Virus record (IMG/VR): IMGVR_UViG_3300017613_000633
Span: 1-32,958 of that record
Origin: a virus
Length of the DNA stretch: 32,958 nt
Direction: 5' to 3' (one strand)
Shown here: piece by piece, positions 1 to 32,958 of the stretch
How the letters are laid out: each line of letters opens with the position of its first letter
How positions within the stretch are numbered: position 1 is the stretch's first letter
Notes under the pieces: generated by a model
Seen by the model: only the letters and a program-made list of their open reading frames with translations
Told to the model about the DNA's origin: nothing
Database searches by the model: none
Program-made: the position numbers and the translations under genes

Positions 1-121
1 ACTATCTAGGCGCTCTGGTGTTGGAGTCACTACAATCCATAACTGGATTACGGGGCATTCTACTCCTACCATGTTAAATCTCACGGCGTTTATTGTCTCT
101 TGCGGGTATGCTGGATTTAAA
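1..121. repeat. Terminal direct repeat, copy 1 (identical to 32838..32958); circular-closure overlap or terminal redundancy
   Basis: Read base by base: 1-121 equals 32838-32958 with no mismatch. The repeat cuts through an ORF that is continuous across the junction. Confidence 0.95.
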
Positions 122-160
122 TATACCATTAAAAATGGATATGAGTTGGTGCCACTATGA
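2..160 (+). CDS. Small helix-turn-helix DNA-binding protein, 3' part (ORF starts at 32785 and continues across the circular junction; 70 aa in total)
   Basis: The frame is continuous through the repeat: MTYIDIITKAKGRQSLSSLSRRSGVGVTTIHNWITGHSTPTMLNLTAFIVSCGYAGFKYTIKNGYELVPL*. The segment LSRRSGVGVTTIHNWITG reads as an XRE/Cro-type HTH. Stop TGA at 158-160. Confidence 0.6.
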   Translation, partial: LSRRSGVGVTTIHNWITGHSTPTMLNLTAFIVSCGYAGFKYTIKNGYELVPL

Positions 161-303
161 AATTCTTAACACCCGAAGATAAGGCCGAGGCAATACGCCT
201 TTACGCTAAAGAAGATATTCCTATAGTCGAGATAGCTTATGCGCTTAAATGCTCACCTGATGTGATAGAGCGCATGTTACGGGCAGAGGGGCAGTTATTG
301 TGA
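157..303 (+). CDS. Small protein (48 aa) with HTH-like core
   Basis: ATG at 157 overlaps the upstream stop (ATGA). Translation: MKFLTPEDKAEAIRLYAKEDIPIVEIAYALKCSPDVIERMLRAEGQLL*. The pattern resembles short resolvase/terminase-type HTH domains. It is below the ORF-track size cutoff. Confidence 0.45.
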   Translation: MKFLTPEDKAEAIRLYAKEDIPIVEIAYALKCSPDVIERMLRAEGQLL

Positions 304-410
304 GTCGCAAGCCAGTAAATAAACAGGCAGAAAAAACGGTATGGGATAAGAAGCTAGCAAAGCGGAAAGAGGCTGAGACTTACAAAGAATTGCTAAAGTT
401 ATTTAAGTAA
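300..410 (+). CDS. Possible 36-aa basic peptide (GTG start)
   Basis: GTG at 300 overlaps the upstream stop (GTGA). Translation: SRKPVNKQAEKTVWDKKLAKRKEAETYKELLKLFK*. It ends directly before a hairpin plus T-run. The call rests on coupling only. Confidence 0.25.
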   Translation: MSRKPVNKQAEKTVWDKKLAKRKEAETYKELLKLFK

Positions 411-437
411 CGGAATCCAGTTGTATCCGTATTTTTT
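410..437 (+). terminator. Candidate intrinsic terminator ending the rightward operon
   Basis: 5-bp stem ACGGA (410-414) / TCCGT (426-430) followed by TTTTTT (432-437), immediately after the last rightward stop codon. Confidence 0.4.
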
Positions 438-492
438 AAGGGGTAGAGAAATGCGCAATAGAAGATTAGGGTATTATTCAATTAATAGGCAC

Positions 493-521
493 TTGCAGTT
501 GTTTTGGTGTATGGTTATATT
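493..521 (+). promoter_or_regulatory. Candidate sigma70-type promoter in the convergent intergenic region
   Basis: TTGCAG (493-498), 17-nt spacer, TATATT (516-521). No credible ORF lies downstream; a terminator hairpin lies about 80 nt downstream. Confidence 0.3.
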
Positions 522-596
522 GTTATCTGCTTTCGTAGTGGTCGGGATTTAAACCCCGTTCCCGTAGTTTGTCGCTATCCACGTCAAGACACCCTT

Positions 597-617
597 AACC
601 CCTTAATTGGGGTTTTT
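597..617 (+). terminator. Intrinsic terminator-like hairpin (plus-strand orientation)
   Basis: AACCCC (597-602), loop TTAATT, GGGGTT (609-614) running into a T-run to 617. Confidence 0.5.
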
Positions 618-649
618 GGGTGCCAGTACTGCAAGAACTGGTTAACAAT

Positions 650-4122: not shown

Positions 4123-6095
4123 TAATTGTCACCTTCTTCTTCGTTAGATGGGTTTATTATTATGCCAAACCCAGTCGCTCGTTTTGATTCTCTAAGCATT
4201 TTATCAAATATCTCGCCAGCTTTCGATGATGTCGCCTCTAAGTTTCTTAGCTTATCCCAATCACTGTTCCATGATGGATCAAATAAAACATCCGCCATTT
4301 GGCTAACCCTCTTATTGAATGCCGCTTCTTCACCAACACCTAGCGTAGTATCAATTGGAGACCTAACTAAGTTTCTGATTGACTGAATTATTCCGCCCCT
4401 CATCTCTTTCGATATCTCTGCCCTGACCCCAGTTTGAGAACCGCCTGGGCGACCCTTGCTCGCTCTTTTTAATGCTGTTTCTAGGTATTTTAATTTCTTC
4501 CTTACTTCTGGCGTGGCGGCCTCATAAAGAACGCGCCTGCTTTTTTCATTACCATAAATTGAATTATACAATTGACTGGGTACGTTTTCAGTAGATGCTG
4601 ATTGAGATAGTTCGCCTAAGTCTGATCGCATTCTTCCCATTCTACGTTGCAACTCAGACCTCAAAAGCATATCCCACGCATCAGGGTCGATATCTTTTAT
4701 TGTTTTCTTGGCATTCTTTATGACGTTGGTGTCTGTCTCGGATGGGTCAAAAACCTGCTTTGATAGCTGCTTTAATTGCAAGTCATCAAGCTTAGACGCT
4801 CTACCAATAGGGCTGTCAACCATGGCGTCAACATCGGGTGAAAGTCTTGCAAATTCAGATTTTGCAGCCCTATATGATGGGCTTTGAGATGTTAAATCAT
4901 CCGTTAAATCTGTAATCACATCAGTCATGTATCGCTTGGTAGTATTCCCTAATGAGTTTTCACCGTAACTATCAATTTTTTGTTGTAACTCTAACTTGGC
5001 ATGGTGTAATTTCTGTAAGTCACCGTTGGCGTTTTTAATCTTAGCCGCTGCTGAATTTAGGTTTTTGGAAATCTCCCCGCTACCATCAAACTGTGCGGCC
5101 ATCTTGTTTATTTTTAATTCAAGATTATCGGTATTAATCAGCTCGGTTTTCCCTTGCCTCTGCCTCCTGAACGCCTGCTTATAAATTGGCGATGAGTATT
5201 CAGAGCGTATAGCTTTGATCTTTTCAACAGACTTTTCCGCTGCCGTTCTAAACCTTGCTCCAGCGTCAGTGATTGAATTTGGTGGTGCTATTGACTCTAA
5301 AACCCTATCAACAGCCTCGGCTGATTGCGCGTTTTGTATTGATAATTCACGCCTAGCTTTTGCCGCGCCACTTGGAAGCTGTGAAACAAAAGCTTGTCTT
5401 TCAATGTCAGTGGGGTTTAATGTTTTTTGAGCCTTAAAAAGGTCAATTCCCGTTTCTTGTGCTGCTTGGGTTCCTGCTATCTCTGCGTTTAATTGTTCTG
5501 GTATATCTGCGTTCTTGCCTGTTTTATTTGGCTTAAATCCTTGCTTAGCTGGTGTGCTAAGCAGCTTAGCTGGTGACAATTCAAGTGCAATATCAGGTAG
5601 AATACTAACAAATGTCGCTATAGCTGGGCTTTTTGTTTTATCTAACGCGTCTGCTCCCGCCCTATCTTTAAACTCTTTTACGTAGTTTATTATCCCGCTT
5701 AACGGCTCAAGTTTCCTGCCTATATAATCAAAAGCGGCCTGCCCTCTTTCTGTGGGTGGTATTCTGAATTTATCTTGTATGCTCTCTATGGTCTTGGTAG
5801 GGTCGTTGTCTGTAAATGGATTCATTACATCAACTAGGGCTGTTAACCCCCCTGCTATCTCTCCCGCTGCGCTAGAGCCTACTGTTGCGGCTGCGGATAA
5901 TCCGCCAATTAAAGGGTTGTCAATTAATGGATTGCTTGGCTCTTGCTGCTCAACCACCTCAATCTGTGCAGGCTCAGAAGGTTCGGGGTTAGCCCTCCCT
6001 TCTTTTATTTTTGCTACAATCAGCGCTATTGCCCTATCGTCCTTATTGGCTTCGGCTAGCCGTAGTTTTTGAATTAAAAGCTTTTCATCAATCAT
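4122..6095 (-). CDS. Large internal virion / ejection protein candidate (657 aa)
   Basis: Occupies the P22 ejection-protein (gp16) position between the hub and the tailspike. Helical, charged composition with no catalytic motif seen. Confidence 0.45.
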   Translation of the reverse strand: MIDEKLLIQKLRLAEANKDDRAIALIVAKIKEGRANPEPSEPAQIEVVEQQEPSNPLIDNPLIGGLSAAATVGSSAAGEIAGGLTALVDVMNPFTDNDPTKTIESIQDKFRIPPTERGQAAFDYIGRKLEPLSGIINYVKEFKDRAGADALDKTKSPAIATFVSILPDIALELSPAKLLSTPAKQGFKPNKTGKNADIPEQLNAEIAGTQAAQETGIDLFKAQKTLNPTDIERQAFVSQLPSGAAKARRELSIQNAQSAEAVDRVLESIAPPNSITDAGARFRTAAEKSVEKIKAIRSEYSSPIYKQAFRRQRQGKTELINTDNLELKINKMAAQFDGSGEISKNLNSAAAKIKNANGDLQKLHHAKLELQQKIDSYGENSLGNTTKRYMTDVITDLTDDLTSQSPSYRAAKSEFARLSPDVDAMVDSPIGRASKLDDLQLKQLSKQVFDPSETDTNVIKNAKKTIKDIDPDAWDMLLRSELQRRMGRMRSDLGELSQSASTENVPSQLYNSIYGNEKSRRVLYEAATPEVRKKLKYLETALKRASKGRPGGSQTGVRAEISKEMRGGIIQSIRNLVRSPIDTTLGVGEEAAFNKRVSQMADVLFDPSWNSDWDKLRNLEATSSKAGEIFDKMLRESKRATGFGIIINPSNEEEGDN

Positions 6096-10725: not shown

Positions 10726-12199
10726 GTTGCGCCCCTGTTTTAATATTAACTCGTAACTTTAGCGCTCTAAATTTGCAAGGGTCTGAGAATTCAAAAAGTA
10801 AAACCCCTAACCTTGGAAACCTGCCAAGCCTCGCCCAAACTTGTCTTACATTATACTCCCCAATCTTACCCATTGCTCGAGGTATTGGGTCATTGAATGA
10901 TTTGCCATCAACGCAAGTGCTTAATCTTACCTCTGGCTCTGGCTGGTCATCATTACCAACACCTGACTCTGTTGTTAGCTCTACGCTGTTAAGTGAAAAT
11001 GAATCGCCCTGATTAGCCAAAGGTTGTAATGAAAACGCCCTCAGTATTGGGTTGTCATACTCTTTATAATTATCAAGCTTCAATTCACCTATTCGACCAT
11101 CTTGTGAGTCACCACATAACACTCGACCATAAGCCGTCACCAGTGAATTAACTCTATGTCTAACATTCTGCGTCAAGCCCTTAGTGTCAACGATTTGACT
11201 TTGTCTTTCGCTCCACGTACCCGTTAGCACTTCATAAACAAAAGTGACTGATGGCAGCGAGAACTCAACAAAATAAGCGCCAGCTTGAGCGTATGAAAAT
11301 GCAAAGCTTTCAACTATTTCATCTCTGGTAAATTCTTGCAGTTTGGTGTCAATAGCTGTTGTACTAACCTTTTGAGGTGTAGCCCCGTTAAGCGTCCATA
11401 TAGCCGCGCTTTCGTTTACTGCGCCACCTATAAACATGAAGCCATCATTAATGTTAACTAAGCTAAATGGGGCAAAGCAGCCTTTAGATACGAACAAGCC
11501 GTTACGCTGGAAAGGAAAGCCCGGCAAACCTAAGTTATCAAAACCCTCTATCGTCTCTGCGCCTGCTATTGTAAGCTTATTCTTAACCACTATCGGCGCA
11601 ACAATTGCGTCTGGGTCTGCAGCTGCTGATGCAAAGTCTAACGCGCTCCACGTCAAGCCGTCATTAGCTGAGGATTTAATTATTCGCTTAGTGTCAGTAG
11701 TCACCACAAAGAATGAATCAACATAAACCACATGCTGAGGCTTACCGTTGGTAGTGGTGAAATCTACATCAGTTATTTGCTGAAATACTGTGCCTGCTGA
11801 CTCATCGATAATATAGCCTTTCCCGTTTGGCACTAACACTAATAGTTGAGTGCCATTATCAGCAAATGAGCATCTTTCATCACCATCAATAGTCCCTAGT
11901 GTTACAGCGGTAAAGACTTCTACACCTTCTGCGTCGTTGGTTCTGTCTATTCTGTATAGAGTACTACCGTTAAGGAAGTAAGGCTTACCGTCTTTAACGT
12001 GTGAGCCTCTATTGATTTGGTCAATTGCACCTGTCGTTAGAATCTCAGACAATCCAGCCGACCCCTTTATCATGGCATCAGATAACGCCACAGCTTGAGG
12101 TTTATCAATGTAACAGTTCAAACACTGTTGATTAGACAAAGGCAGGCTGTCAGATACGTAATAACCGTTGCCTAGTGAAACCGGTACAGGCTGACCCAT
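10715..12199 (-). CDS. P22 gp10-like tail hub / packaged-DNA stabilization protein
   Basis: 494 aa (P22 gp10 is about 470 aa). The C-terminal end VRQVWARLGRFPRLGVLLFEF...LKLRV resembles the gp10 C-terminus (VLWKRVGRIRRLIGFKLRV) as I recall it. Synteny with the gp4-like gene supports the call. Confidence 0.55.
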   Translation of the reverse strand: MGQPVPVSLGNGYYVSDSLPLSNQQCLNCYIDKPQAVALSDAMIKGSAGLSEILTTGAIDQINRGSHVKDGKPYFLNGSTLYRIDRTNDAEGVEVFTAVTLGTIDGDERCSFADNGTQLLVLVPNGKGYIIDESAGTVFQQITDVDFTTTNGKPQHVVYVDSFFVVTTDTKRIIKSSANDGLTWSALDFASAAADPDAIVAPIVVKNKLTIAGAETIEGFDNLGLPGFPFQRNGLFVSKGCFAPFSLVNINDGFMFIGGAVNESAAIWTLNGATPQKVSTTAIDTKLQEFTRDEIVESFAFSYAQAGAYFVEFSLPSVTFVYEVLTGTWSERQSQIVDTKGLTQNVRHRVNSLVTAYGRVLCGDSQDGRIGELKLDNYKEYDNPILRAFSLQPLANQGDSFSLNSVELTTESGVGNDDQPEPEVRLSTCVDGKSFNDPIPRAMGKIGEYNVRQVWARLGRFPRLGVLLFEFSDPCKFRALKLRVNIKTGAQRGR

Positions 12200-22439: not shown

Positions 22440-23863
22440 TAGCTGGTTACACCTGTAATAACAGCACCATCAATATGTGTTGCTTCGTTGTCTACTACTA
22501 GCCCTATAACGTTGGTTGTAGCCGCTACAGCAAGCCCCGCTACAGTCGCAGAATTTGACACATAAGCAATGCTAGCATCATGTATTGTTTCGCCTGTTGA
22601 CTCGTTGATTAGTATTGTTCTGTAAGTTCCCTCAGGTATTGCGTTAGGGCTTCCTGATACTGTGATGCTAGATGTAGGGGCGGAAAGTATTTCAATTCGA
22701 CCATGCCATAATTCGTTTGTTGTAGTAACAAACGCAGAAACTGGAATAAACCCCATGTCTGCCGTTACGTTATGTGATGATGAAGCTGGGCTTGTAATGC
22801 CAACCTCTGCATCAATAAGGACGGTGGCTATGGATGTGGTCGGGGTTATATTGGTGTTATCAAGCAGGTATTTTTTGTACGTTATTTTAGCTGGTGACGT
22901 ACTTCTATCTTCATAGATTAGATAATAGTTAAGCTCGTCTAAAACAACGATACCCCGAGAACCCGCTGTTGAGTAGTTGTTAAACGTAAACGTTGAGTTA
23001 TTTGTATCTGTGTCAATCACGCCGTGTATTAAATACAAATGGTCTGACAGCGTGTCACCTTTAACTGATGCGTATAGCTCGCCGTTGATAGACCTTGCGC
23101 AAACATGGTCATCAATTGAATCACCCACAGGTAAACCCATCGTTTCTACCACCCATCCCGTTGAGTAGTCTGACGGGTTTGATTCAGTTTGATGGTAAGC
23201 TATTTTAAAATTAGTAGCGCCACAGTATACAACGCCTACCCATTCAACAGCCCCTTTCATAAAAGTAAAACCGTCTAACGAGCGTATGTTTCCGTCTGCC
23301 TCTCTATTGAAGCCGGATTCTATCTGAGTGTAGTCTGGATTCGTATTAGAAAACCCATTATAGGCAACTAACAATCCGTCCTTAGTTGACATTGATGTTG
23401 AGTCATTAGATGAACCTAATGCAAAAATTAGTTGATTGCCTTGCTGGTCAACTATTAGTGACATTTGCTCACTATCAAATGCAGAGTTGTTAAATTGCCC
23501 GGAGTCAAGCTTGTTTGCAACAGAGGTTCCGTAGGAGTTAGAAACAGGGTTGTACGGAATGGTAAATAAGTAAGATGCCCCGCCAGCACCTTTATAGCCT
23601 ATTAATCCATACTCATCATTAACAGAATCATAATCAACATCGTAAGACCTACCGCCGAGGCTGGGTACAGTTAGTTTTTCTGTGTTTTGCGCTACCCCGT
23701 CCCCCCAGCCAGTGCGAGTTCCAGCAGCGCCCAGCGACATTTCTTCATAGATATTGCTAGTATCTTGGAGCGTCCACCGCCCGTCATGGTAAACAAAATT
23801 GCTAGCATTGCTTTTTACTTCGTAGTGACCGCCAGTAACGGGTGCTATGTTGCCTATTGCCAT
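22439..23863 (-). CDS. Large beta-rich structural-like protein (474 aa)
   Basis: Strong SD GGGGGAG upstream of the ATG. Ser/Thr/Asn/Gly-rich. No catalytic motif recognised. Confidence 0.6.
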   Translation of the reverse strand: MAIGNIAPVTGGHYEVKSNASNFVYHDGRWTLQDTSNIYEEMSLGAAGTRTGWGDGVAQNTEKLTVPSLGGRSYDVDYDSVNDEYGLIGYKGAGGASYLFTIPYNPVSNSYGTSVANKLDSGQFNNSAFDSEQMSLIVDQQGNQLIFALGSSNDSTSMSTKDGLLVAYNGFSNTNPDYTQIESGFNREADGNIRSLDGFTFMKGAVEWVGVVYCGATNFKIAYHQTESNPSDYSTGWVVETMGLPVGDSIDDHVCARSINGELYASVKGDTLSDHLYLIHGVIDTDTNNSTFTFNNYSTAGSRGIVVLDELNYYLIYEDRSTSPAKITYKKYLLDNTNITPTTSIATVLIDAEVGITSPASSSHNVTADMGFIPVSAFVTTTNELWHGRIEILSAPTSSITVSGSPNAIPEGTYRTILINESTGETIHDASIAYVSNSATVAGLAVAATTNVIGLVVDNEATHIDGAVITGVTS

Positions 23864-24029
23864 ATCTACACTCCCCCAAATCCGTTAAAAGTTTTCATAA
23901 TATTAAGACCTTTTTCCTGTACGTGACATACCTTTCTTACTACCGTTATCTTCTCTGTAATTTTGTATTTACCGATAACCTCAGTAGTCAGTATCAATTT
24001 TTTATCTCACCTTAATTCCGTTAATTATA

Positions 24030-24104
24030 TCATTCATCCAATAAACCCCCAACCACTAAAAATATAATGCAGGGGATGGCGATTAACCATAGTGTTATTG
24101 TCAT
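24030..24104 (-). CDS. Possible 24-aa hydrophobic peptide
   Basis: Translation: MTITLWLIAIPCIIFLVVGGLLDE*. Its ATG overlaps the upstream stop (TAATG). It is below the ORF-track cutoff. Confidence 0.3.
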   Translation of the reverse strand: MTITLWLIAIPCIIFLVVGGLLDE

Positions 24105-24349
24105 TAGTTATGATCCTTGTGTGGGATATCATGTAAAGCCTTTGACCAACCCAAAGAAATTTTGATAATTGGAAGTGTTATTGATAAACCAAAACTATTA
24201 CCGATAGTTAAGAGGTCAATGTTAAACAACGGCCAAATATATCCAGTTTCTTCGCCTTGCTTTTTATCTTCTCTACGGAATATATCAACGACTGTTATAG
24301 ATGCTACTAGCTGCCCAATGAATACTGTTTTGTCAAAAAACTTCATCAC
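24104..24349 (-). CDS. Hypothetical protein (81 aa)
   Basis: SD AAGGGGGAG upstream of the ATG. The antisense 118-aa track ORF looks like noise. Confidence 0.55.
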   Translation of the reverse strand: MMKFFDKTVFIGQLVASITVVDIFRREDKKQGEETGYIWPLFNIDLLTIGNSFGLSITLPIIKISLGWSKALHDIPHKDHN

Positions 24350-24396: not shown

Positions 24397-24771
24397 CTAA
24401 TTTGCTAGTTTTGCCGCATATTCAATTAAAAATATTTTGGGCGCTATCCAGATTTGTAGCCAAACTAGGTTGAAAGCAACAAGTGGTATAAAAACAAAGG
24501 GTAATTGAAATACATTAAACATCATTAAAGGGTTATTTAATAAATCATTTTCTTTTGCAAAGTCATACTGCTTCTTATTTGCCCATACCCAAACTACGCA
24601 AAACACAACGCCAAAAAAACACATAGCCGCACTTTTTACGCCATGCCACAAAAGCAATTGACTTATTACTTCTGGCAACTCTCCCGCTAAAAACTCACCA
24701 GACGAATCAATACCGTTATTAGCTTTATTTAATATCTCACTTAATGCCTTTTGTAATTCTTCGTTTATCAT
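24397..24771 (-). CDS. Multi-TM membrane protein (124 aa)
   Basis: Hydrophobic stretches AAMCFFGVVFCVVWVWA and LPFVFIPLVAFNLVWLQIWIAPKIFLI. Confidence 0.6.
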   Translation of the reverse strand: MINEELQKALSEILNKANNGIDSSGEFLAGELPEVISQLLLWHGVKSAAMCFFGVVFCVVWVWANKKQYDFAKENDLLNNPLMMFNVFQLPFVFIPLVAFNLVWLQIWIAPKIFLIEYAAKLAN

Positions 24772-24847: not shown

Positions 24848-25027
24848 TCAGCCATTATTTCGATCCTTATACAGATTGCCTTGCGGTTTAAGTATTTGAC
24901 CCTTACTATCAACCCAGCATCCATAACTTAACCATCTGCGGATTTGTACAGGGCTTGTGCCAGTTTGAACCCCTGCATTATTGCTATTTCCGTACCGTTC
25001 TTTGATTACATCAGCTAGCTTTTGCAT
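24848..25027 (-). CDS. Small HTH-like protein (59 aa), first gene after the late-type promoter
   Basis: Perfect SD GGAGG 7 nt upstream of ATG 25027. Translation: MQKLADVIKERYGNSNNAGVQTGTSPVQIRRWLSYGCWVDSKGQILKPQGNLYKDRNNG*. It is one codon below the ORF-track cutoff. Confidence 0.55.
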   Translation of the reverse strand: MQKLADVIKERYGNSNNAGVQTGTSPVQIRRWLSYGCWVDSKGQILKPQGNLYKDRNNG

Positions 25028-25058: not shown

Positions 25059-25098
25059 ACCTTAAAACACTTTTGTATTGATGTAAACAGTTTTGTTT
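25059..25098 (-). promoter_or_regulatory. Promoter-like element with two 15-nt direct repeats (copy B of a shared motif)
   Basis: Minus strand reads aaACAAAACTGTTTAcatcaATACAAAAGTGTTTTAAGGT. -35 TTTACA (25082-25087), 17-nt spacer, -10 TAAGGT (25059-25064). It overlaps the dnaB stop. Confidence 0.45.
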
Positions 25099-27887: not shown

Positions 27888-28320
27888 CTTGCATCACCGC
27901 TTTTAAATATAAATCGTCTGGATGTGTAAAAACACAGCCCTCTTGTGCCGCTTCAATCTCATAAATCATCAGAAACGCCGCAAATTCTTTCACCTTGAGT
28001 TTCTTGGTTTCAGCTCGAGGGGTGAACCACTTGCCTTGTATTTTTACAGGCTCACTTGGCAGATACTCAGGTACCATCTTGTCATGCCATGTTTGAGTGC
28101 TTACCAACTCACCCCTTGACTGATAAAGGAACTCGCAGAATTCACCATGCCATTTCCAAAGCAAGCGATTCTGCGCGGCATTACGAGTTAGATTATCTTC
28201 TTCCACAGTGACTTTTACAGGTTTGTCACTAGCCGCCCAGATGCTGGATAACATGACCCTTACCATCTCAGGCCATTCGCGGCCCTTATCGCGGGTCAGT
28301 ATTTTTACTTGCTTGTCCAT
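27877..28320 (-). CDS. ninB: NinB/Orf-family recombination mediator
   Basis: 147 aa. TRNAAQNRLLWKWHGEF and KVKEFAAFLMIYEIEAAQEGC resemble lambda Orf (RSLDQNRKLWACLGDV, RVGEFAELLELIQAFGTERG). Confidence 0.62.
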   Translation of the reverse strand: MDKQVKILTRDKGREWPEMVRVMLSSIWAASDKPVKVTVEEDNLTRNAAQNRLLWKWHGEFCEFLYQSRGELVSTQTWHDKMVPEYLPSEPVKIQGKWFTPRAETKKLKVKEFAAFLMIYEIEAAQEGCVFTHPDDLYLKAVMQDAE

Positions 28321-28472
28321 TAGCCCACCTCCTTCTTGTGCTGCTTTAAAACCAATTCGGCTATGATAGCAGCCATTGTGTAATCGTGTCTTTCTGCTGC
28401 TTGGCGTGTTTTTGATATCTCTTTAAGCTTCGTGTGAATATTCTTGTTTATCATTAATGTTTTGCTGCTCAT
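28320..28472 (-). CDS. Arc/Mnt-like ribbon-helix-helix protein (50 aa), first gene of the leftward early operon
   Basis: Translation: MSSKTLMINKNIHTKLKEISKTRQAAERHDYTMAAIIAELVLKQHKKEVG*. The beta-strand plus two-helix layout is like P22 Arc. TAATG coupling to ninB. It is below the ORF-track cutoff. Confidence 0.5.
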   Translation of the reverse strand: MSSKTLMINKNIHTKLKEISKTRQAAERHDYTMAAIIAELVLKQHKKEVG

Positions 28473-28489
28473 TGTGTCGCCTTGTTTGA

Positions 28490-28517
28490 TTGATTTAACA
28501 CATTCTAACTGTATAAA
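28490..28517 (+). promoter_or_regulatory. Candidate rightward early promoter
   Basis: TTGATT (28490-28495), 16-nt spacer ending in TG, TATAAA (28512-28517). Confidence 0.5.
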
Positions 28518-28530
28518 TTATATTAATCAA
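28502..28530 (-). promoter_or_regulatory. Candidate leftward early promoter, physically overlapping the rightward one
   Basis: On the minus strand: TTGATT (28525-28530), 17-nt spacer, TAGAAT (28502-28507). Confidence 0.5.
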
Positions 28531-28602
28531 TATACAAAATAATAGTTGCACCGATGTTAATTCGTGTGTATTGTTTGGATTCACTTAACGGGAGTAAATG
28601 AA

Positions 28603-30503: not shown

Positions 30504-30831
30504 AACACGACCCAGTAAACAACCCTAAACACTATGACTTGTTTCCAAACGAACAAAGCATAGACATAATTCAAAGCCGCATGTCGCTGGATGAGTTCAA
30601 AGGCTTTCTAAAAGGCAACTGCTTAAAGTATCGACTTAGGCAGGCAATAAAGGCGATTTACAGCAAGACATTGACAAAGCTAACTGGTATCAAGCGAAGT
30701 TGCGGGCAATGGATAAAAAATGGCCTGAGTCGGATGATAGGATGAATATAGTTGTGCATAATGGAGCATTTAATCAAAACATACACCAACGAAAACGAAA
30801 CGGTTTTAGATTTTACTATGGGTTCAGGTAG
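30500..30831 (+). pseudogene. DUF3310-family gene split by a -1 frame break at 30650-30653
   Basis: Frame 0 (30500-30652) gives VNNPKHY...GNCLKYRLRQAIK. The expected continuation GDLQQDIDKANWYQAKLRAM is encoded from 30652 in the -1 frame. Frame 0 itself runs on to a stop at 30745 with non-family sequence. Confidence 0.6.
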
Positions 30832-30931
30832 CACAGGAGTAGCAGCTAAAAACCTAAACCGCAAATTTATAGGTATAGAGTTGGACGAAGAATACTTTAA
30901 GATTGCACAAGATAGAATTAGTGCAACATAA
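30761..30931 (+). pseudogene. C-terminal remnant of a beta-class N6/N4 DNA methyltransferase
   Basis: The 56-codon ORF MEHLIKTYTNENETVLDFTMGSGSTGVAAKNLNRKFIGIELDEEYFKIAQDRISAT* carries the AdoMet motif (F-x-G-S-G-[ST]-T) and a C-terminal helix. No DPPY catalytic region lies upstream, and there is an in-frame stop at 30749-30751. Confidence 0.62.
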
Positions 30932-31005
30932 CCACACAATAATGGGCAAGCTTGCCTTGTCCCGATTAAATGCCTTGTTAGGCGGTAACTATAAGGGGTA
31001 GACAA

Positions 31006-31272
31006 ATGAACATGATTAGTGAATTACGAGGCAGAGTGAAAACTAGTGGAGGCGCGTACATTACCATTGAAGATTACAATAAATTACAGGTGGAATGGAT
31101 TAAAAGAGCAAAGTTAGATGTAAGCCTAAACCAGTTAAAGGCTGATGCTTTCTTTGAGGTCGGTGAAAAACTAAAATATGAATATGAAGGGCCTTATGAT
31201 CAAAGTAGCATAGAAGAGTTTTTTGACGCACTAGCGCAGGATTTAATACTAAAGGCTGATAGCTTGGTTTAG
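31006..31272 (+). CDS. Hypothetical protein (88 aa)
   Basis: SD AAGGGG 7 nt upstream of the ATG. Confidence 0.62.
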   Translation: MNMISELRGRVKTSGGAYITIEDYNKLQVEWIKRAKLDVSLNQLKADAFFEVGEKLKYEYEGPYDQSSIEEFFDALAQDLILKADSLV

Positions 31273-31359
31273 TAACATAACCTTTTAAATAACGGGCGTT
31301 TTACGTCCCTGTTTATTTGGTTGTTATGTGACGTATTGAACTAATAAGGAAGATGTAAA

Positions 31360-31458
31360 ATGAGATTATGGTCAGACGATAAAACAGAAGATGATATTGA
31401 ATACTACGCTAATGATTGCGAGACTGAAGAATGTAGGGGTGCATTATGCCAAGCATAA
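31360..31458 (+). CDS. Possible 32-aa acidic peptide
   Basis: SD AAGGAAG upstream. Translation: MRLWSDDKTEDDIEYYANDCETEECRGALCQA*. It overlaps the next start by 13 nt. Confidence 0.3.
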   Translation: MRLWSDDKTEDDIEYYANDCETEECRGALCQA

Positions 31459-31709
31459 ACAAACAACTGTTTGCTGTTATCCAAGAGGAAGCATGTGACT
31501 ACCAAAAGTTTATCCGGCTTGAAACTGTAGTGAGTAAGATTGTAAGGGATGAATGCGGAAAGGTGGATTGTTACCACTACCAGAAATATATCGAGATAAT
31601 GAACATGGTTAATAATGCTGGATGGGAAACAAAAAAAGATGAAATACTAAAATCTTTACGTGCAGCCACTAACCTCATTGAACGTAGAAACTCGGAATAC
31701 CTACCATAA
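31446..31709 (+). CDS. Hypothetical protein (87 aa)
   Basis: SD AGGGG 7 nt upstream of the ATG. Confidence 0.6.
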   Translation: MPSINKQLFAVIQEEACDYQKFIRLETVVSKIVRDECGKVDCYHYQKYIEIMNMVNNAGWETKKDEILKSLRAATNLIERRNSEYLP

Positions 31710-31786
31710 ACGACAAGGGGCATACTAATGAGAGATCAAGTATTGGAGTCTGATTTTAATATTGCAAAAGGCAGGATTGAAGCAGC

Positions 31787-32218
31787 ATGATAAAAATTAA
31801 ACGCTTAACAAGTAACGCAAAAATACCAACACTATCAAACCCTAATGATGCTGGTTTAGATTTATGTACCACTATCAATGTGGATATACTACCTGGTTGC
31901 CGCGCAACGCTACCAACTGGATTAGCTTTTGCGTTGCCAGTCGGTACTGTTGGTCTTGTATGGCCTCGTAGTAAGTTAGCTAGTAAATGGGGCTTGGACA
32001 TACTTGCTGGCGTTGTGGATTGCGATTACAGGGGTGAGGTTATGGTTAGCGTAATCAACTTAGGTCATAAAATAATAGAGTTGCGAGAAGGTGACAAAAT
32101 AGCGCAGATGATAGTCCAAGAGCATAAAAGTGGATTACCTATTGTTGAGACTAATGACCTTGATGAAACCGTTCGCGGCAAGGCTGGAATTAATGACACT
32201 GAAATAAGATTAAATTAA
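31787..32218 (+). CDS. dut: Trimeric dUTPase
   Basis: Motifs AGLDL, PRSKLASKWGL, GVVDCDYRGEV and GDKIAQM are present. The C-terminal motif V is degenerate (RGKAGINDTE). Confidence 0.9.
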   Translation: MIKIKRLTSNAKIPTLSNPNDAGLDLCTTINVDILPGCRATLPTGLAFALPVGTVGLVWPRSKLASKWGLDILAGVVDCDYRGEVMVSVINLGHKIIELREGDKIAQMIVQEHKSGLPIVETNDLDETVRGKAGINDTEIRLN

Positions 32219-32220
32219 TC

Positions 32221-32260
32221 ATACAAAAGTGTTTACATTGATACAGAAGTGTTTTATTAT
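32221..32260 (+). promoter_or_regulatory. Promoter with two 15-nt direct repeats (copy A of a shared motif)
   Basis: ATACAAAAGTGTTTA (32221-32235) and ATACAGAAGTGTTTT (32241-32255), period 20 nt. -35 TTTACA (32232-32237), 17-nt spacer, -10 TATTAT (32255-32260). Confidence 0.5.
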
Positions 32261-32291
32261 AGTTTCAAGCTAACAAAACGGAAGAAATAAA

Positions 32292-32450
32292 ATGAAAGCA
32301 ACTATTGAGAACTACATGGATTGCAAAAGTGAAAAAGAGTTTGATTTTTTGGGGTCGCTACAAAAAGACGACTCTTTTGATGGGGTTGAAAGTATTGACC
32401 CTTGTTATTTAGGCGGTGATTTTCACAGTGTTCAGATTCATTATTATTAA
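32292..32450 (+). CDS. Small acidic protein (52 aa)
   Basis: SD GGAAG upstream. Translation: MKATIENYMDCKSEKEFDFLGSLQKDDSFDGVESIDPCYLGGDFHSVQIHYY*. It has 11 D/E versus 4 K/R and is below the ORF-track cutoff. Confidence 0.5.
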   Translation: MKATIENYMDCKSEKEFDFLGSLQKDDSFDGVESIDPCYLGGDFHSVQIHYY

Positions 32451-32500
32451 TCAACCAACACTTAAGGGCTACCAACATCAACTAAACGGGAGTTAGAAAA

Positions 32501-32788
32501 ATGTTAAACCACTTAATCGAAGAAGATGAACCAAGTAAGTTAGAATTAGCAACTGAACATCATTGGGATGAGCTAAACGGAAGGGGTATTACAACATTCT
32601 CTGATGACGAAGAAACTCGCGTCATAGACATGGACATAATAACCCAAGATTGCCTTAATGATTTTAGGCTTTTAGGACTTTATGAGACAACCAACGAGGG
32701 CTTGCCATTTATTGAGGCTTTAAGGGATAAGATACGCACTATGAAAAATGATTTAATGGAAACGGCTCTTGAGGACTTTTATTCATGA
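32501..32788 (+). CDS. Small strongly acidic protein (95 aa)
   Basis: SD GGGAG upstream. By my count it has 24 D/E versus 8 K/R. Confidence 0.65.
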   Translation: MLNHLIEEDEPSKLELATEHHWDELNGRGITTFSDDEETRVIDMDIITQDCLNDFRLLGLYETTNEGLPFIEALRDKIRTMKNDLMETALEDFYS

Positions 32789-32958
32789 CTTATATTGATA
32801 TTATAACAAAAGCAAAAGGCAGGCAAAGTTTGTCGTCACTATCTAGGCGCTCTGGTGTTGGAGTCACTACAATCCATAACTGGATTACGGGGCATTCTAC
32901 TCCTACCATGTTAAATCTCACGGCGTTTATTGTCTCTTGCGGGTATGCTGGATTTAAA
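32785..32958 (+). CDS. Small HTH DNA-binding protein, 5' part (continues at 2..160 across the circular junction)
   Basis: ATG 32785 overlaps the upstream stop (ATGA). The ORF is open to the window end and in phase with 2..160. Confidence 0.6.
   Translation, partial: MTYIDIITKAKGRQSLSSLSRRSGVGVTTIHNWITGHSTPTMLNLTAFIVSCGYAGFK
32838..32958. repeat. Terminal direct repeat, copy 2 (identical to 1..121)
   Basis: Base-for-base identity with 1-121. Confidence 0.95.

Follow-up and report, generated by a model that had tools for sequence, protein, structure and literature searches.

A conserved small-gene cassette behind a repeat-bearing putative promoter in a P22-like phage genome

Why would a phage place a promoter, two small acidic proteins and two helix-turn-helix (HTH) proteins behind the last gene of an early arm? 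The question is raised by positions 32,221 to 32,958 of the IMG/VR virus record IMGVR_UViG_3300017613_000633 (the window from here on, that is, the whole stretch of 32,958 nucleotides that was analysed). A first-pass annotation of this DNA had seen in the locus the layout of anti-CRISPR (Acr) operons, where small effector genes precede an HTH regulator (Aca). Our analysis led to a different reading, to which we give a probability of roughly 0.55: a delayed-early cassette of accessory and regulatory genes in marine mosaic phages that probably infect Alteromonadales, with negative feedback on twin promoters and with the second acidic protein, orf95, as the effector. A second promoter with the same repeats is what is new here, and a conserved cassette with a two-promoter circuit is more interesting than a single acr-like operon would be.

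The cassette and its acidic proteins

The cassette starts directly behind the dUTPase gene (dut) and is a string of short open reading frames (ORFs). Its features are the following (aa, amino acids; D/E and K/R, acidic and basic residues; RBS, ribosome-binding site):

Promoter P_L2: 32221-32260, plus strand; -35 TTTACA (32232-37), 17-bp spacer, -10 TATTAT (32255-60); directly 3' of the dut stop codon
orf52: 32292-32450, plus strand; acidic ORFan of 52 aa in the first slot; 11 D/E, 4 K/R
orf95: 32501-32788, plus strand; acidic family member of 95 aa; 24 D/E, 8 K/R; ATGA overlap with HTH70
HTH70: 32785-32958 continuing at 1-160, plus strand; XRE/Cro-type HTH protein of 70 aa
HTH48: 157-303, plus strand; tri-helical HTH protein of 48 aa (resolvase- or sigma-region-4-like) that ends in AEGQLL; the best-conserved protein of the cassette
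orf36: 300-410, plus strand; basic protein of 36 aa with a GTG start; conserved SRKPxNKxAEKxxWxKK...ELELLRLF
Membrane ORF: 451-552, plus strand; 33 aa, with an RBS; position conserved in relatives

Consecutive genes overlap by ATGA or GTGA. The charge counts that had been reported for both acidic proteins were reproduced, and the XRE-type protein across the circular junction, the 48-aa HTH-like protein and the tiny basic ORF were all found as described.

The same order of genes was found in about a dozen marine phage contigs and in a cultured Paraglaciecola phage: orf95, an XRE-type HTH gene, HTH48, often a DNA methyltransferase gene and, usually, the basic ORF and the small membrane ORF, followed by convergent lysis genes. 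The orf95 homologue is followed, with overlapping start and stop codons, by an XRE-like HTH protein of 66-85 aa and by an HTH48 counterpart of 47-58 aa ending in AEGQLL. This string of three was read at the loci that we number L001/L195, L002, L003, L007, L020, L021, L022/L023, L024, L028/L029, and L191. L193 contains it too, except that an inserted DUF551 ORF separates the XRE-like HTH from HTH48. In the cultured phage, the siphovirus Paraglaciecola Antarctic JLT virus 2 (JLT2), the string is gp37-gp36-gp35, and the paper on this phage (PMC9239159) says nothing on gp35-gp38. Two pattern scans of 185,579 bacterial genomes retrieved no relatives, and a further XRE-based scan retrieved no new architectures. 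The closest cultured relative by capsid, Pseudoalteromonas virus vB_PspP-H6/1 (H6/1), lacks orf95 and HTH48. Thus, the cassette is a mosaic module and not part of the core of this virion type.

Many loci have an orphan DNA methyltransferase, of at least three types overall, placed exactly in the junction of HTH48 and the basic orf36, a position that is free of any methyltransferase in the window:

C5 type: L001, L021, L024, L194
N6_N4 type: L020
phrog_757 type: L002, L028, L033

The slot between the promoter and orf95 varies as well. It holds orf52 in the window, a protein of 216 aa in L002, gp38 in JLT2, and proteins of 149-163 aa in L020, L021, and L028 (58 aa plus 163 aa in L028), and it is empty in L001, L003, L007, L022, and L024. 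No function is known for any of the first-slot proteins.

orf52 was absent from every relative examined. A homology search retrieved the protein alone, it is the sole member of its cluster among 5.8 billion (5.8e9) proteins, and it had no match in Pfam, PHROGs, PDB, or PADLOC. Still, orf52 is probably a real gene, since its in-frame codon usage falls at the 35th percentile of 52-codon pieces from the known genes of this phage, with no off-frame piece reaching its score, and since it has its own copy of the leader/RBS AACGGAAGAAATAAAATG, as found before the orf95 homologues in L001 and L007. Compared to L003, the gene looks like an insertion of about 220 bp between the -10 hexamer and the orf95 leader. 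Within orf52, a consensus scan flagged a terminator-like hairpin with a T-rich tail at 32382-32402 (GGGGTTGAAAGTATTGACCCT TGTTATTTAG), which could attenuate read-through into orf95 or could be a chance feature.

orf95, with 25% D/E and a net charge of -16, belongs to a rare family that comprised 3 proteins in the first search, 16 in a profile search of 1.84 billion representatives, and 35 clusters in a profile search of 5.8 billion proteins. All members are metagenomic, several of them from Tara samples, and none has a Pfam domain. The 18 members that were aligned are all net acidic (16-25% D/E), and 11 alignment columns are at least 70% D/E, including the hairpin turn D36-E37-E38, and D45/D50/D54 on helix 2. 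We modelled the structure with AlphaFold2 on this 18-sequence alignment, replacing an earlier 3-sequence run that was poor (predicted local distance difference test, pLDDT, 56). The model used is confident (pLDDT 86, predicted template modelling score 0.70) and presents a helix at 13-28, a beta-hairpin at 30-43, helices at 44-56 and 60-64, and a long helix at 68-94.

Foldseek retrieved no structural match for this model (best E 2.4 in PDB and 0.41 in BFVD). The first-pass annotation had proposed structure prediction to look for a DNA mimic, and these fold searches gave no similarity to Ocr, ArdA, or another mimic. A search of PDB sequences with the family profile (hmmsearch) reached unrelated proteins, with a best E of 0.61, and orf95 had no match in Pfam, PHROGs, or PADLOC. 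Neither acidic protein falls in a recognised family, as had been noted at first: the sequence searches of both and the fold search of orf95 were all without a match. For orf95, homology to a housekeeping phage function was looked for and not found; equally, no positive link to anti-defence appeared.

As the partner of the HTH gene, orf95 is conserved in about a dozen loci and does not look like variable cargo. At L006, L009, and L033, a different acidic protein of 93-100 aa stands upstream of the XRE type that L007 has behind its orf95-type protein; compared by hhalign, the 93-aa protein of the L006 type showed no relationship to the orf95 family (probability 0.1). Outside these three loci, orf95 and the HTH gene stay together.

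These observations bear on an anti-defence operon of the acr-aca type, an alternative that we consider less likely. orf95, and perhaps orf52, would act against a host defence such as a restriction enzyme or CRISPR-Cas effector, DNA mimicry being one way, and HTH70, as a new Aca-like autorepressor, would control a second accessory operon as well. Much of the acr-aca layout claimed at first pass finds support in the small acidic genes with an HTH gene next, the translational coupling, the repeats in the core promoter, an apparently swappable gene upstream of the HTH (one XRE type with two non-homologous acidic upstream proteins, L007 vs. L006/L009/L033), and a hotspot for orphan methyltransferases, which recur in the operon. 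The variable ORFans of the first slot and the acidity kept across the orf95 family point the same way, as does H6/1, whose lack of the cassette makes the cassette dispensable for that virion type. Moreover, an Aca protein may act on more than one operon, and methyltransferase and restriction-modification genes occur in acr-aca operons (PMC13551039), so that the twin promoter described below is compatible with this alternative. Other parts of the layout did not fit. The cassette has a conserved five-gene core, its HTH is a generic XRE protein without a significant match to solved Aca proteins, and its repeats recur at a second promoter. The conservation of orf95 equals that of the HTH, beside which it nearly always stands, unlike patchy acr genes, and HTH48, orf36, and the membrane ORF are also kept, unlike in acr operons. 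Searched by sequence in Pfam, PHROGs, PADLOC, and PDB, neither orf95 nor orf52 matches Acr, Ocr, or ArdA, and the orf95 model matches no fold in PDB or BFVD. Our confidence in this alternative is kept low by the core of five genes, by the strict orf95-HTH pairing, and by the lack of homology to a known anti-defence protein. An anti-defence function taken from context is conjecture.

Twin promoters and their repeats

P_L2 is the best match to the sigma-70 consensus within 31000-32958 (10 of 12 positions), in a scan that as a whole was not above shuffled sequence (10 sites vs. 6.6 +/- 2.7). The promoter with repeated sites that the first-pass annotation had placed behind dut is present there, and its counterpart is conserved in every relative examined. 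The repeats are direct and not inverted, as had been noted: ATACAAAAGTGTTT (32221-34) and ATACAGAAGTGTTT (32241-54) are identical at 13 of 14 positions and lie 20 bp apart, start to start. They share the 14-bp form ATACA[A/G]AAGTGTTT, overlap the -35 hexamer and the spacer, and end at the -35 and -10 hexamers, respectively. Exact matches to ATACARAAGTGTTT occur three times in the whole window, when about 0.001 would be expected by chance.

A second element of this kind lies on the opposite strand:

Twin promoter P_R2: 25059-25098, minus strand; directly after the dnaB stop codon; -35 TTTACA (25087-82), -10 TAAGGT (25064-59)
59-aa ORF: 24848-25027, minus strand; first gene after P_R2; GGGAGG RBS; phrog_10496 (no assigned function)

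P_R2 has the repeats AAACAAAACTGTTT (25098-85; 2 mismatches) and ATACAAAAGTGTTT (25078-65; the exact 14-mer), again 20 bp apart and flanking TTTACA, and the 45-bp cores of both promoters are identical at 34 of 45 positions. P_L2 is at the distal end of the early-left arm and P_R2 at the distal end of the early-right arm, about 7 kb apart on opposite strands. Two small membrane-protein genes (24397-24771 and 24104-24349) follow the 59-aa ORF. In the gap at 23863-24104, an extended -10 promoter-like element, TGATATAAT (~23990-24010, minus strand), precedes a 474-aa ORF and the late genes; the late operon may truly begin there.

Among the relatives, every locus read has a -35/-10 pair with a 17-bp spacer right behind the stop codon of the preceding gene. 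The spacer and the flanks differ around hexamers that persist:

L002, L022: -35 TTTACA, spacer 17, -10 TATCTT
L001: -35 TTTACA, spacer 17, -10 TATCGT
L020, L021, L024: -35 TTGACA, spacer 17, -10 TATATT
L028: -35 TTGACA, spacer 17, -10 TATACT
L191: -35 TTTACA, spacer 17, -10 TATAAT
JLT2: -35 TGTACA, spacer 17, -10 TAGAGT

Besides, every lineage read has repeats or dyads of its own within the core promoter:

Window, L003: direct 14-mers; promoter and repeats identical in both
L002: CAAAACTG-N12-CAGTTTTG
L006/L009: perfect inverted repeat of 15 bp, CTTAACGCTTTACAC-N13-GTGTAAAGCGTTAAG
L022: AGACAG-TT-CTGTCT
L020/L021/L024: TGACA-GTGT-TGTCA
JLT2: CTGTACATAC twice, at the -35 hexamer and just after the -10 hexamer

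A protein bound over the core promoter would occlude RNA polymerase, and thus the position of these operator-like elements fits repression. A scan of IMG/VR with a degenerate dyad pattern gave mostly chance matches, and its result was not used.

Twin promoters were found in three independent phages. In JLT2 they are at 22535/22565 (minus strand) and at 31267/31296 (plus strand, after dnaB); two copies of CTGTACATAC lie ahead of gp38, and two of T/CTGTACATAC lie between the helicase block and gp60. In the contig of L028 (read as L042), ACATTAGTGTTGACA...TGTGTCTAT recurs on the opposite strand at a distance of 10 kb. H6/1, without the cassette, shares no word of 11 or more nucleotides between its post-dnaB promoter and its left arm. 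With twins in three phages and none in the cassette-free H6/1, the repeats are best read as operators of a two-promoter circuit that travels with the cassette. As a side observation, proteins of 77-85 aa (...NVWAERMS...) that seem HTH-like by eye precede the twin promoter behind the replication genes in L042 (reverse complement, 11609-11845) and in JLT2 (30773-31263); no counterpart was noticed in the window.

Our preferred reading can now be put as a mechanism. After dut, the last gene of the early-left arm, the sigma-70-type promoter would re-initiate transcription of the variable first-slot gene (here orf52), orf95, the XRE-HTH, HTH48, the methyltransferase (absent here), orf36, and the membrane ORF, up to a terminator. 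The repeats over the -35 hexamer and the spacer would act as operators, the same pair being present at the twin after dnaB. Once accumulated, one phage DNA-binding protein would probably occlude both promoters and shut off both delayed-early operons, a negative feedback of the Cro/Aca type with the cassette XRE-HTH as the most likely binder. The ATGA coupling would keep orf95 in fixed proportion to the XRE-HTH. As the conserved effector, orf95, which is small and predicted to be helical and has acidic patches kept across its family, would most likely bind a nucleic-acid-binding protein, either a host defence or transcription protein or a cassette HTH. Promoter activity at P_L2 and its twin, the repeat-binding protein, the repression, and the roles of orf95 and orf52 are all inferred from the DNA and its conservation; regulatory logic like that of Aca or Cro is plausible.

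The repeat-binding protein and the competing readings

We place HTH70 in the XRE / Cro-CI group of HTH proteins by sequence comparison, at the level of the superfamily only. Its match to Pfam HTH_3 was weak and below the cut-off (E 5.9e-4; 20.3 bits, cut-off 23). A profile built from 11 cassette XRE proteins retrieved HipB (5e-5), P22 C2 (2e-3), 434 Cro (0.03), and HigA from PDB, and the sole Aca protein matched in this search was Aca11, at a non-significant E of 0.11.

Matches to HipB, HigA, and P22 C2 would suit a lysogeny-type immunity region, with HTH70 acting like CI on twin operators of the OL/OR kind, or a HigBA-like toxin-antitoxin pair of orf95 and HTH70; we consider both very improbable. 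The L002 HTH also had weak precomputed matches to PF21716, an HTH family encoded downstream of HI1420-like genes, operators common to two promoters are found in lambdoid immunity regions, and the authors of the JLT2 paper suspected lysogeny from a Rha-like gene (PMC9239159). However, no integrase, excisionase, or CI-type or CI-length repressor was matched among the window ORFs of at least 100 aa, nor was an antiterminator (Q-like ones included). No relative was retrieved by pattern scan from the bacterial genomes, and the twin promoters face outward at the distal ends of the arms and do not lie around the regulator gene. orf95 differs from known type II toxins in its strong acidity and its helical model, which has no RelE/ParE-like fold (no match in Foldseek, Pfam, PADLOC, or PDB).

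For HTH48, the matches to Pfam HTH_23, HTH_7, and HTH_38 were all under the curated cut-offs, and this was also the case for the best matches of its 8 homologues (HTH_38 1.3e-5, HTH_23 1.5e-4, and, for two of the eight, Sigma70_r4 1.6e-4). Across all five proteins from orf52 to orf36, Pfam, PHROGs, and PADLOC yielded nothing beyond such sub-threshold HTH matches. The JLT2 annotation names gp36, the counterpart of HTH70, a 'transcriptional regulator' and gp35, the counterpart of HTH48, an 'RNA polymerase sigma factor'. In L022, a protein of 115 aa (4509-4856) has a second XRE-like domain fused to HTH48, an arrangement that suggests that the two HTH proteins of the cassette act together.

The fusion and the weak Sigma70_r4 matches would also suit a module for temporal switching or for the retargeting of RNA polymerase, which we judge unlikely. 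orf95, the XRE-HTH, and the sigma-region-4-like HTH48 would then act jointly on transcription, with orf95 as an anti-repressor, as a DNA-mimic decoy for the HTH, or as a binder of host sigma factor or the beta flap, and the twin promoters would be the targets of a switch from early to later transcription. HTH70 and HTH48 are the sole window proteins that match HTH families (both below cut-off), and none of the ORFs scanned matched a Q-like antiterminator, CI, or integrase; orf95 and the XRE gene co-occur and are translationally coupled, the sigma-factor name of gp35 fits, and in three phages each early arm ends in one of the twin promoters. The domain matches of HTH48 remain under the cut-offs, however, and H6/1 has the same genome plan without the cassette. 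P_R2 is not obviously a late promoter: its operon consists of three small proteins, followed by the separate extended -10 promoter before the late genes. Finally, Foldseek against PDB found no structural likeness of orf95 to AsiA or other polymerase binders.

Which protein would bind the repeats? For JLT2 and for the groups of loci that we call B and C, operator type tracks XRE type. In L191, a window-like HTH48 (80% identity) is found beside a group-C-like XRE protein, and the operator of this locus, AACGCTTTACA...AATTAAA, is group-C-like; operator type therefore follows XRE type. HTH48 was considered as the operator binder, given that CAAAA[G/C]TG-type sites and near-identical HTH48 proteins are common to the window, L003, and L002, and the L191 operator counters this. 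Another candidate binder was noticed in the first gene of the early-right arm (28320-28472, minus strand). Its 50-aa protein, MSSKTLMINKNIHTKLKEIS..., has a weak PHROG match (E = 0.09) and looks like a regulator of the ribbon-helix-helix type.

Several points weigh against the two-promoter feedback that we prefer. Between the window and L003, promoter and repeats agree and the XRE proteins differ (70 vs. 85 aa, unrelated-looking, with different recognition helices). Either the XRE protein would not be the binder, or L003 would be a recent recombinant; identity between both loci is 92% in dut and 65% in orf95, so a recombination joint between the promoter and orf95 is possible. HTH48, the ribbon-helix-helix-like 50-aa protein, and the 59-aa ORF behind P_R2 are alternative binders. 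Dimeric HTH repressors usually bind dyads, whereas the repeats of the window are direct. The promoter and operator roles are argued from consensus matches and conservation. The likeness of P_L2 and P_R2 could stem merely from duplicated sequence at module junctions. orf95 has no detectable relative of known function, and its role as effector is argued from charge and position. A scan of IMG/VR with a degenerate dyad pattern gave mostly chance matches, and its result was not used.

A bolder reading is, in our view, speculative. The orf95 family would be a new class of counter-defence or host-takeover proteins with a fold unseen in PDB and BFVD, kept at a fixed ratio with a dedicated XRE protein that represses two delayed-early promoters through lineage-specific operators, and the operon would serve marine Alteromonadales phages as a site where anti-restriction genes land, among them orphan methyltransferases and ORFans like orf52.

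If the preferred reading is true, the orf95 family, with its 35 previously unannotated clusters and a confidently modelled fold that looks novel, is a compact candidate effector for screens on anti-defence and host takeover, and marine phages without a recognisable antiterminator or repressor have a testable two-promoter circuit. The two variable positions, the first slot and the slot between HTH48 and the basic ORF, would also serve as a rule for mining accessory genes and methyltransferases in uncultured relatives. Since a cultured carrier exists (JLT2, gp34-gp38), experiments are feasible.

Genome plan, operon end and known systems

At the genome level, window positions 32838-32958 are an exact copy of 1-121 (a 121-bp overlap). 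The window is thus a circularly closed assembly of 32,837 bp, and the HTH70 ORF, from 32785, crosses the junction and ends at window position 160. It is the complete genome of a P22-like podophage. Its capsid protein is 76% identical to that of H6/1 and 38% to those of Sf6 and HK620, and the host of the lineage is probably a marine member of the Alteromonadales. Two early arms diverge at about 28472-28564. On the minus strand are the 50-aa protein, NinB, a nuclease, an O-like initiator and DnaB, then small genes, and then the terminase, portal, scaffold, capsid, and tail genes. On the plus strand, a recombination module (exonuclease, SSB), a DUF3310 protein, a methyltransferase fragment and dut precede the cassette:

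dut: 31787-32218, plus strand; dUTPase, Pfam 3.5e-32

The fragment, at 30761-30931, is a product of 56 aa in the source gene call with an N6_N4_Mtase match (L004 3261-3431), and it looks like the remnant of a DNA methyltransferase gene of the early-left arm.

Two hairpins were considered for the 3' end of the operon:

Hairpin with T-run: 410-437, plus strand; -4.5 kcal/mol, z = -1.26; 24 of 200 shuffles fold as well; conserved in L003 only
Intrinsic terminator: 590-622, plus strand; CACCC..AACCCC-TTAATT-GGGGTT-TTT-GGGTG; -17.9 kcal/mol, z = -3.4

The hairpin at 410-437, noted at first pass, is present and weak, a partial terminator at most. The membrane ORF and the stronger terminator lie beyond it, so the operon probably ends near 620. 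The terminator sequence GCCCCTTAATTGGGGTTTTTGGGTG (590-622; L002, L003, L005-L019) is identical in 15 otherwise unrelated IMG/VR contigs, with unrelated sequence upstream, and could be a terminator of mobile or host origin, or else an attachment-type core. Just before it, the window, L002, and L003 share a conserved non-coding stretch (535-598: TAGTGGTC, a variable hairpin, TTCC..CAGTTTGYCGCTRTCCAC..AAGRCACC), which may be a small RNA or a 3'-UTR (untranslated region) element; an Rfam scan of the entire window gave no match. Beyond the terminator, in the convergent gap between the cassette and the lysis and late genes, a hairpin at 657-695 (CCCTCCCTGC...GCGGAGGG, -14.6 kcal/mol) is common to L002 and may be a bidirectional terminator.

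Among known systems, Ocr and ArdA resemble orf95 in small size, in acidity (the D/E content and net charge given above), in acidic positions conserved across the family, and in an early expression context beside methyltransferase insertion sites. They differ in that orf95 has no similarity to them in sequence or fold; its predicted alpha-beta-hairpin-alpha3 fold is, we assume, unlike that of either protein.

An analogy may be drawn with AsiA and MotA of T4, where a helical acidic protein of about 90 aa would likewise have DNA-binding partners, one of them sigma-region-4-like, and where a set of phage promoters would share a phage-specific element at or near -35. Unlike there, the -35 hexamer is kept here and not replaced, and no similarity to AsiA or MotA was found.

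The Cro-CI switches of lambdoid and P22 phages (OL/OR) are closer in several respects: a P22-like capsid, a small XRE-type HTH, one operator sequence at two promoters on opposite strands, and sites that overlap the -35 and -10 hexamers, so that binding should repress. Here, in contrast, the promoters are some 7 kb apart at the distal ends of the arms and not around the regulator gene, each has two sites and not three, the regulator is the third gene of the operon that it would control, and no CI or integrase was matched.

Finally, the acr-aca operons usually have inverted repeats, whereas the repeats are direct here. Our HTH falls outside the detectable solved Aca families, orf95 seems a conserved partner and not patchy cargo, the core includes additional HTH, basic, and membrane proteins, and there is no Acr homology and no link to CRISPR-Cas. 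The likeness is in the architecture: a short operon with a strong promoter of its own, small and often acidic genes before a small HTH gene, repeats inside the promoter, and a gene upstream of the HTH that seems swappable between relatives. It extends to a regulator that may serve more than one operon and to methyltransferase genes that may be embedded among the others (PMC13551039).

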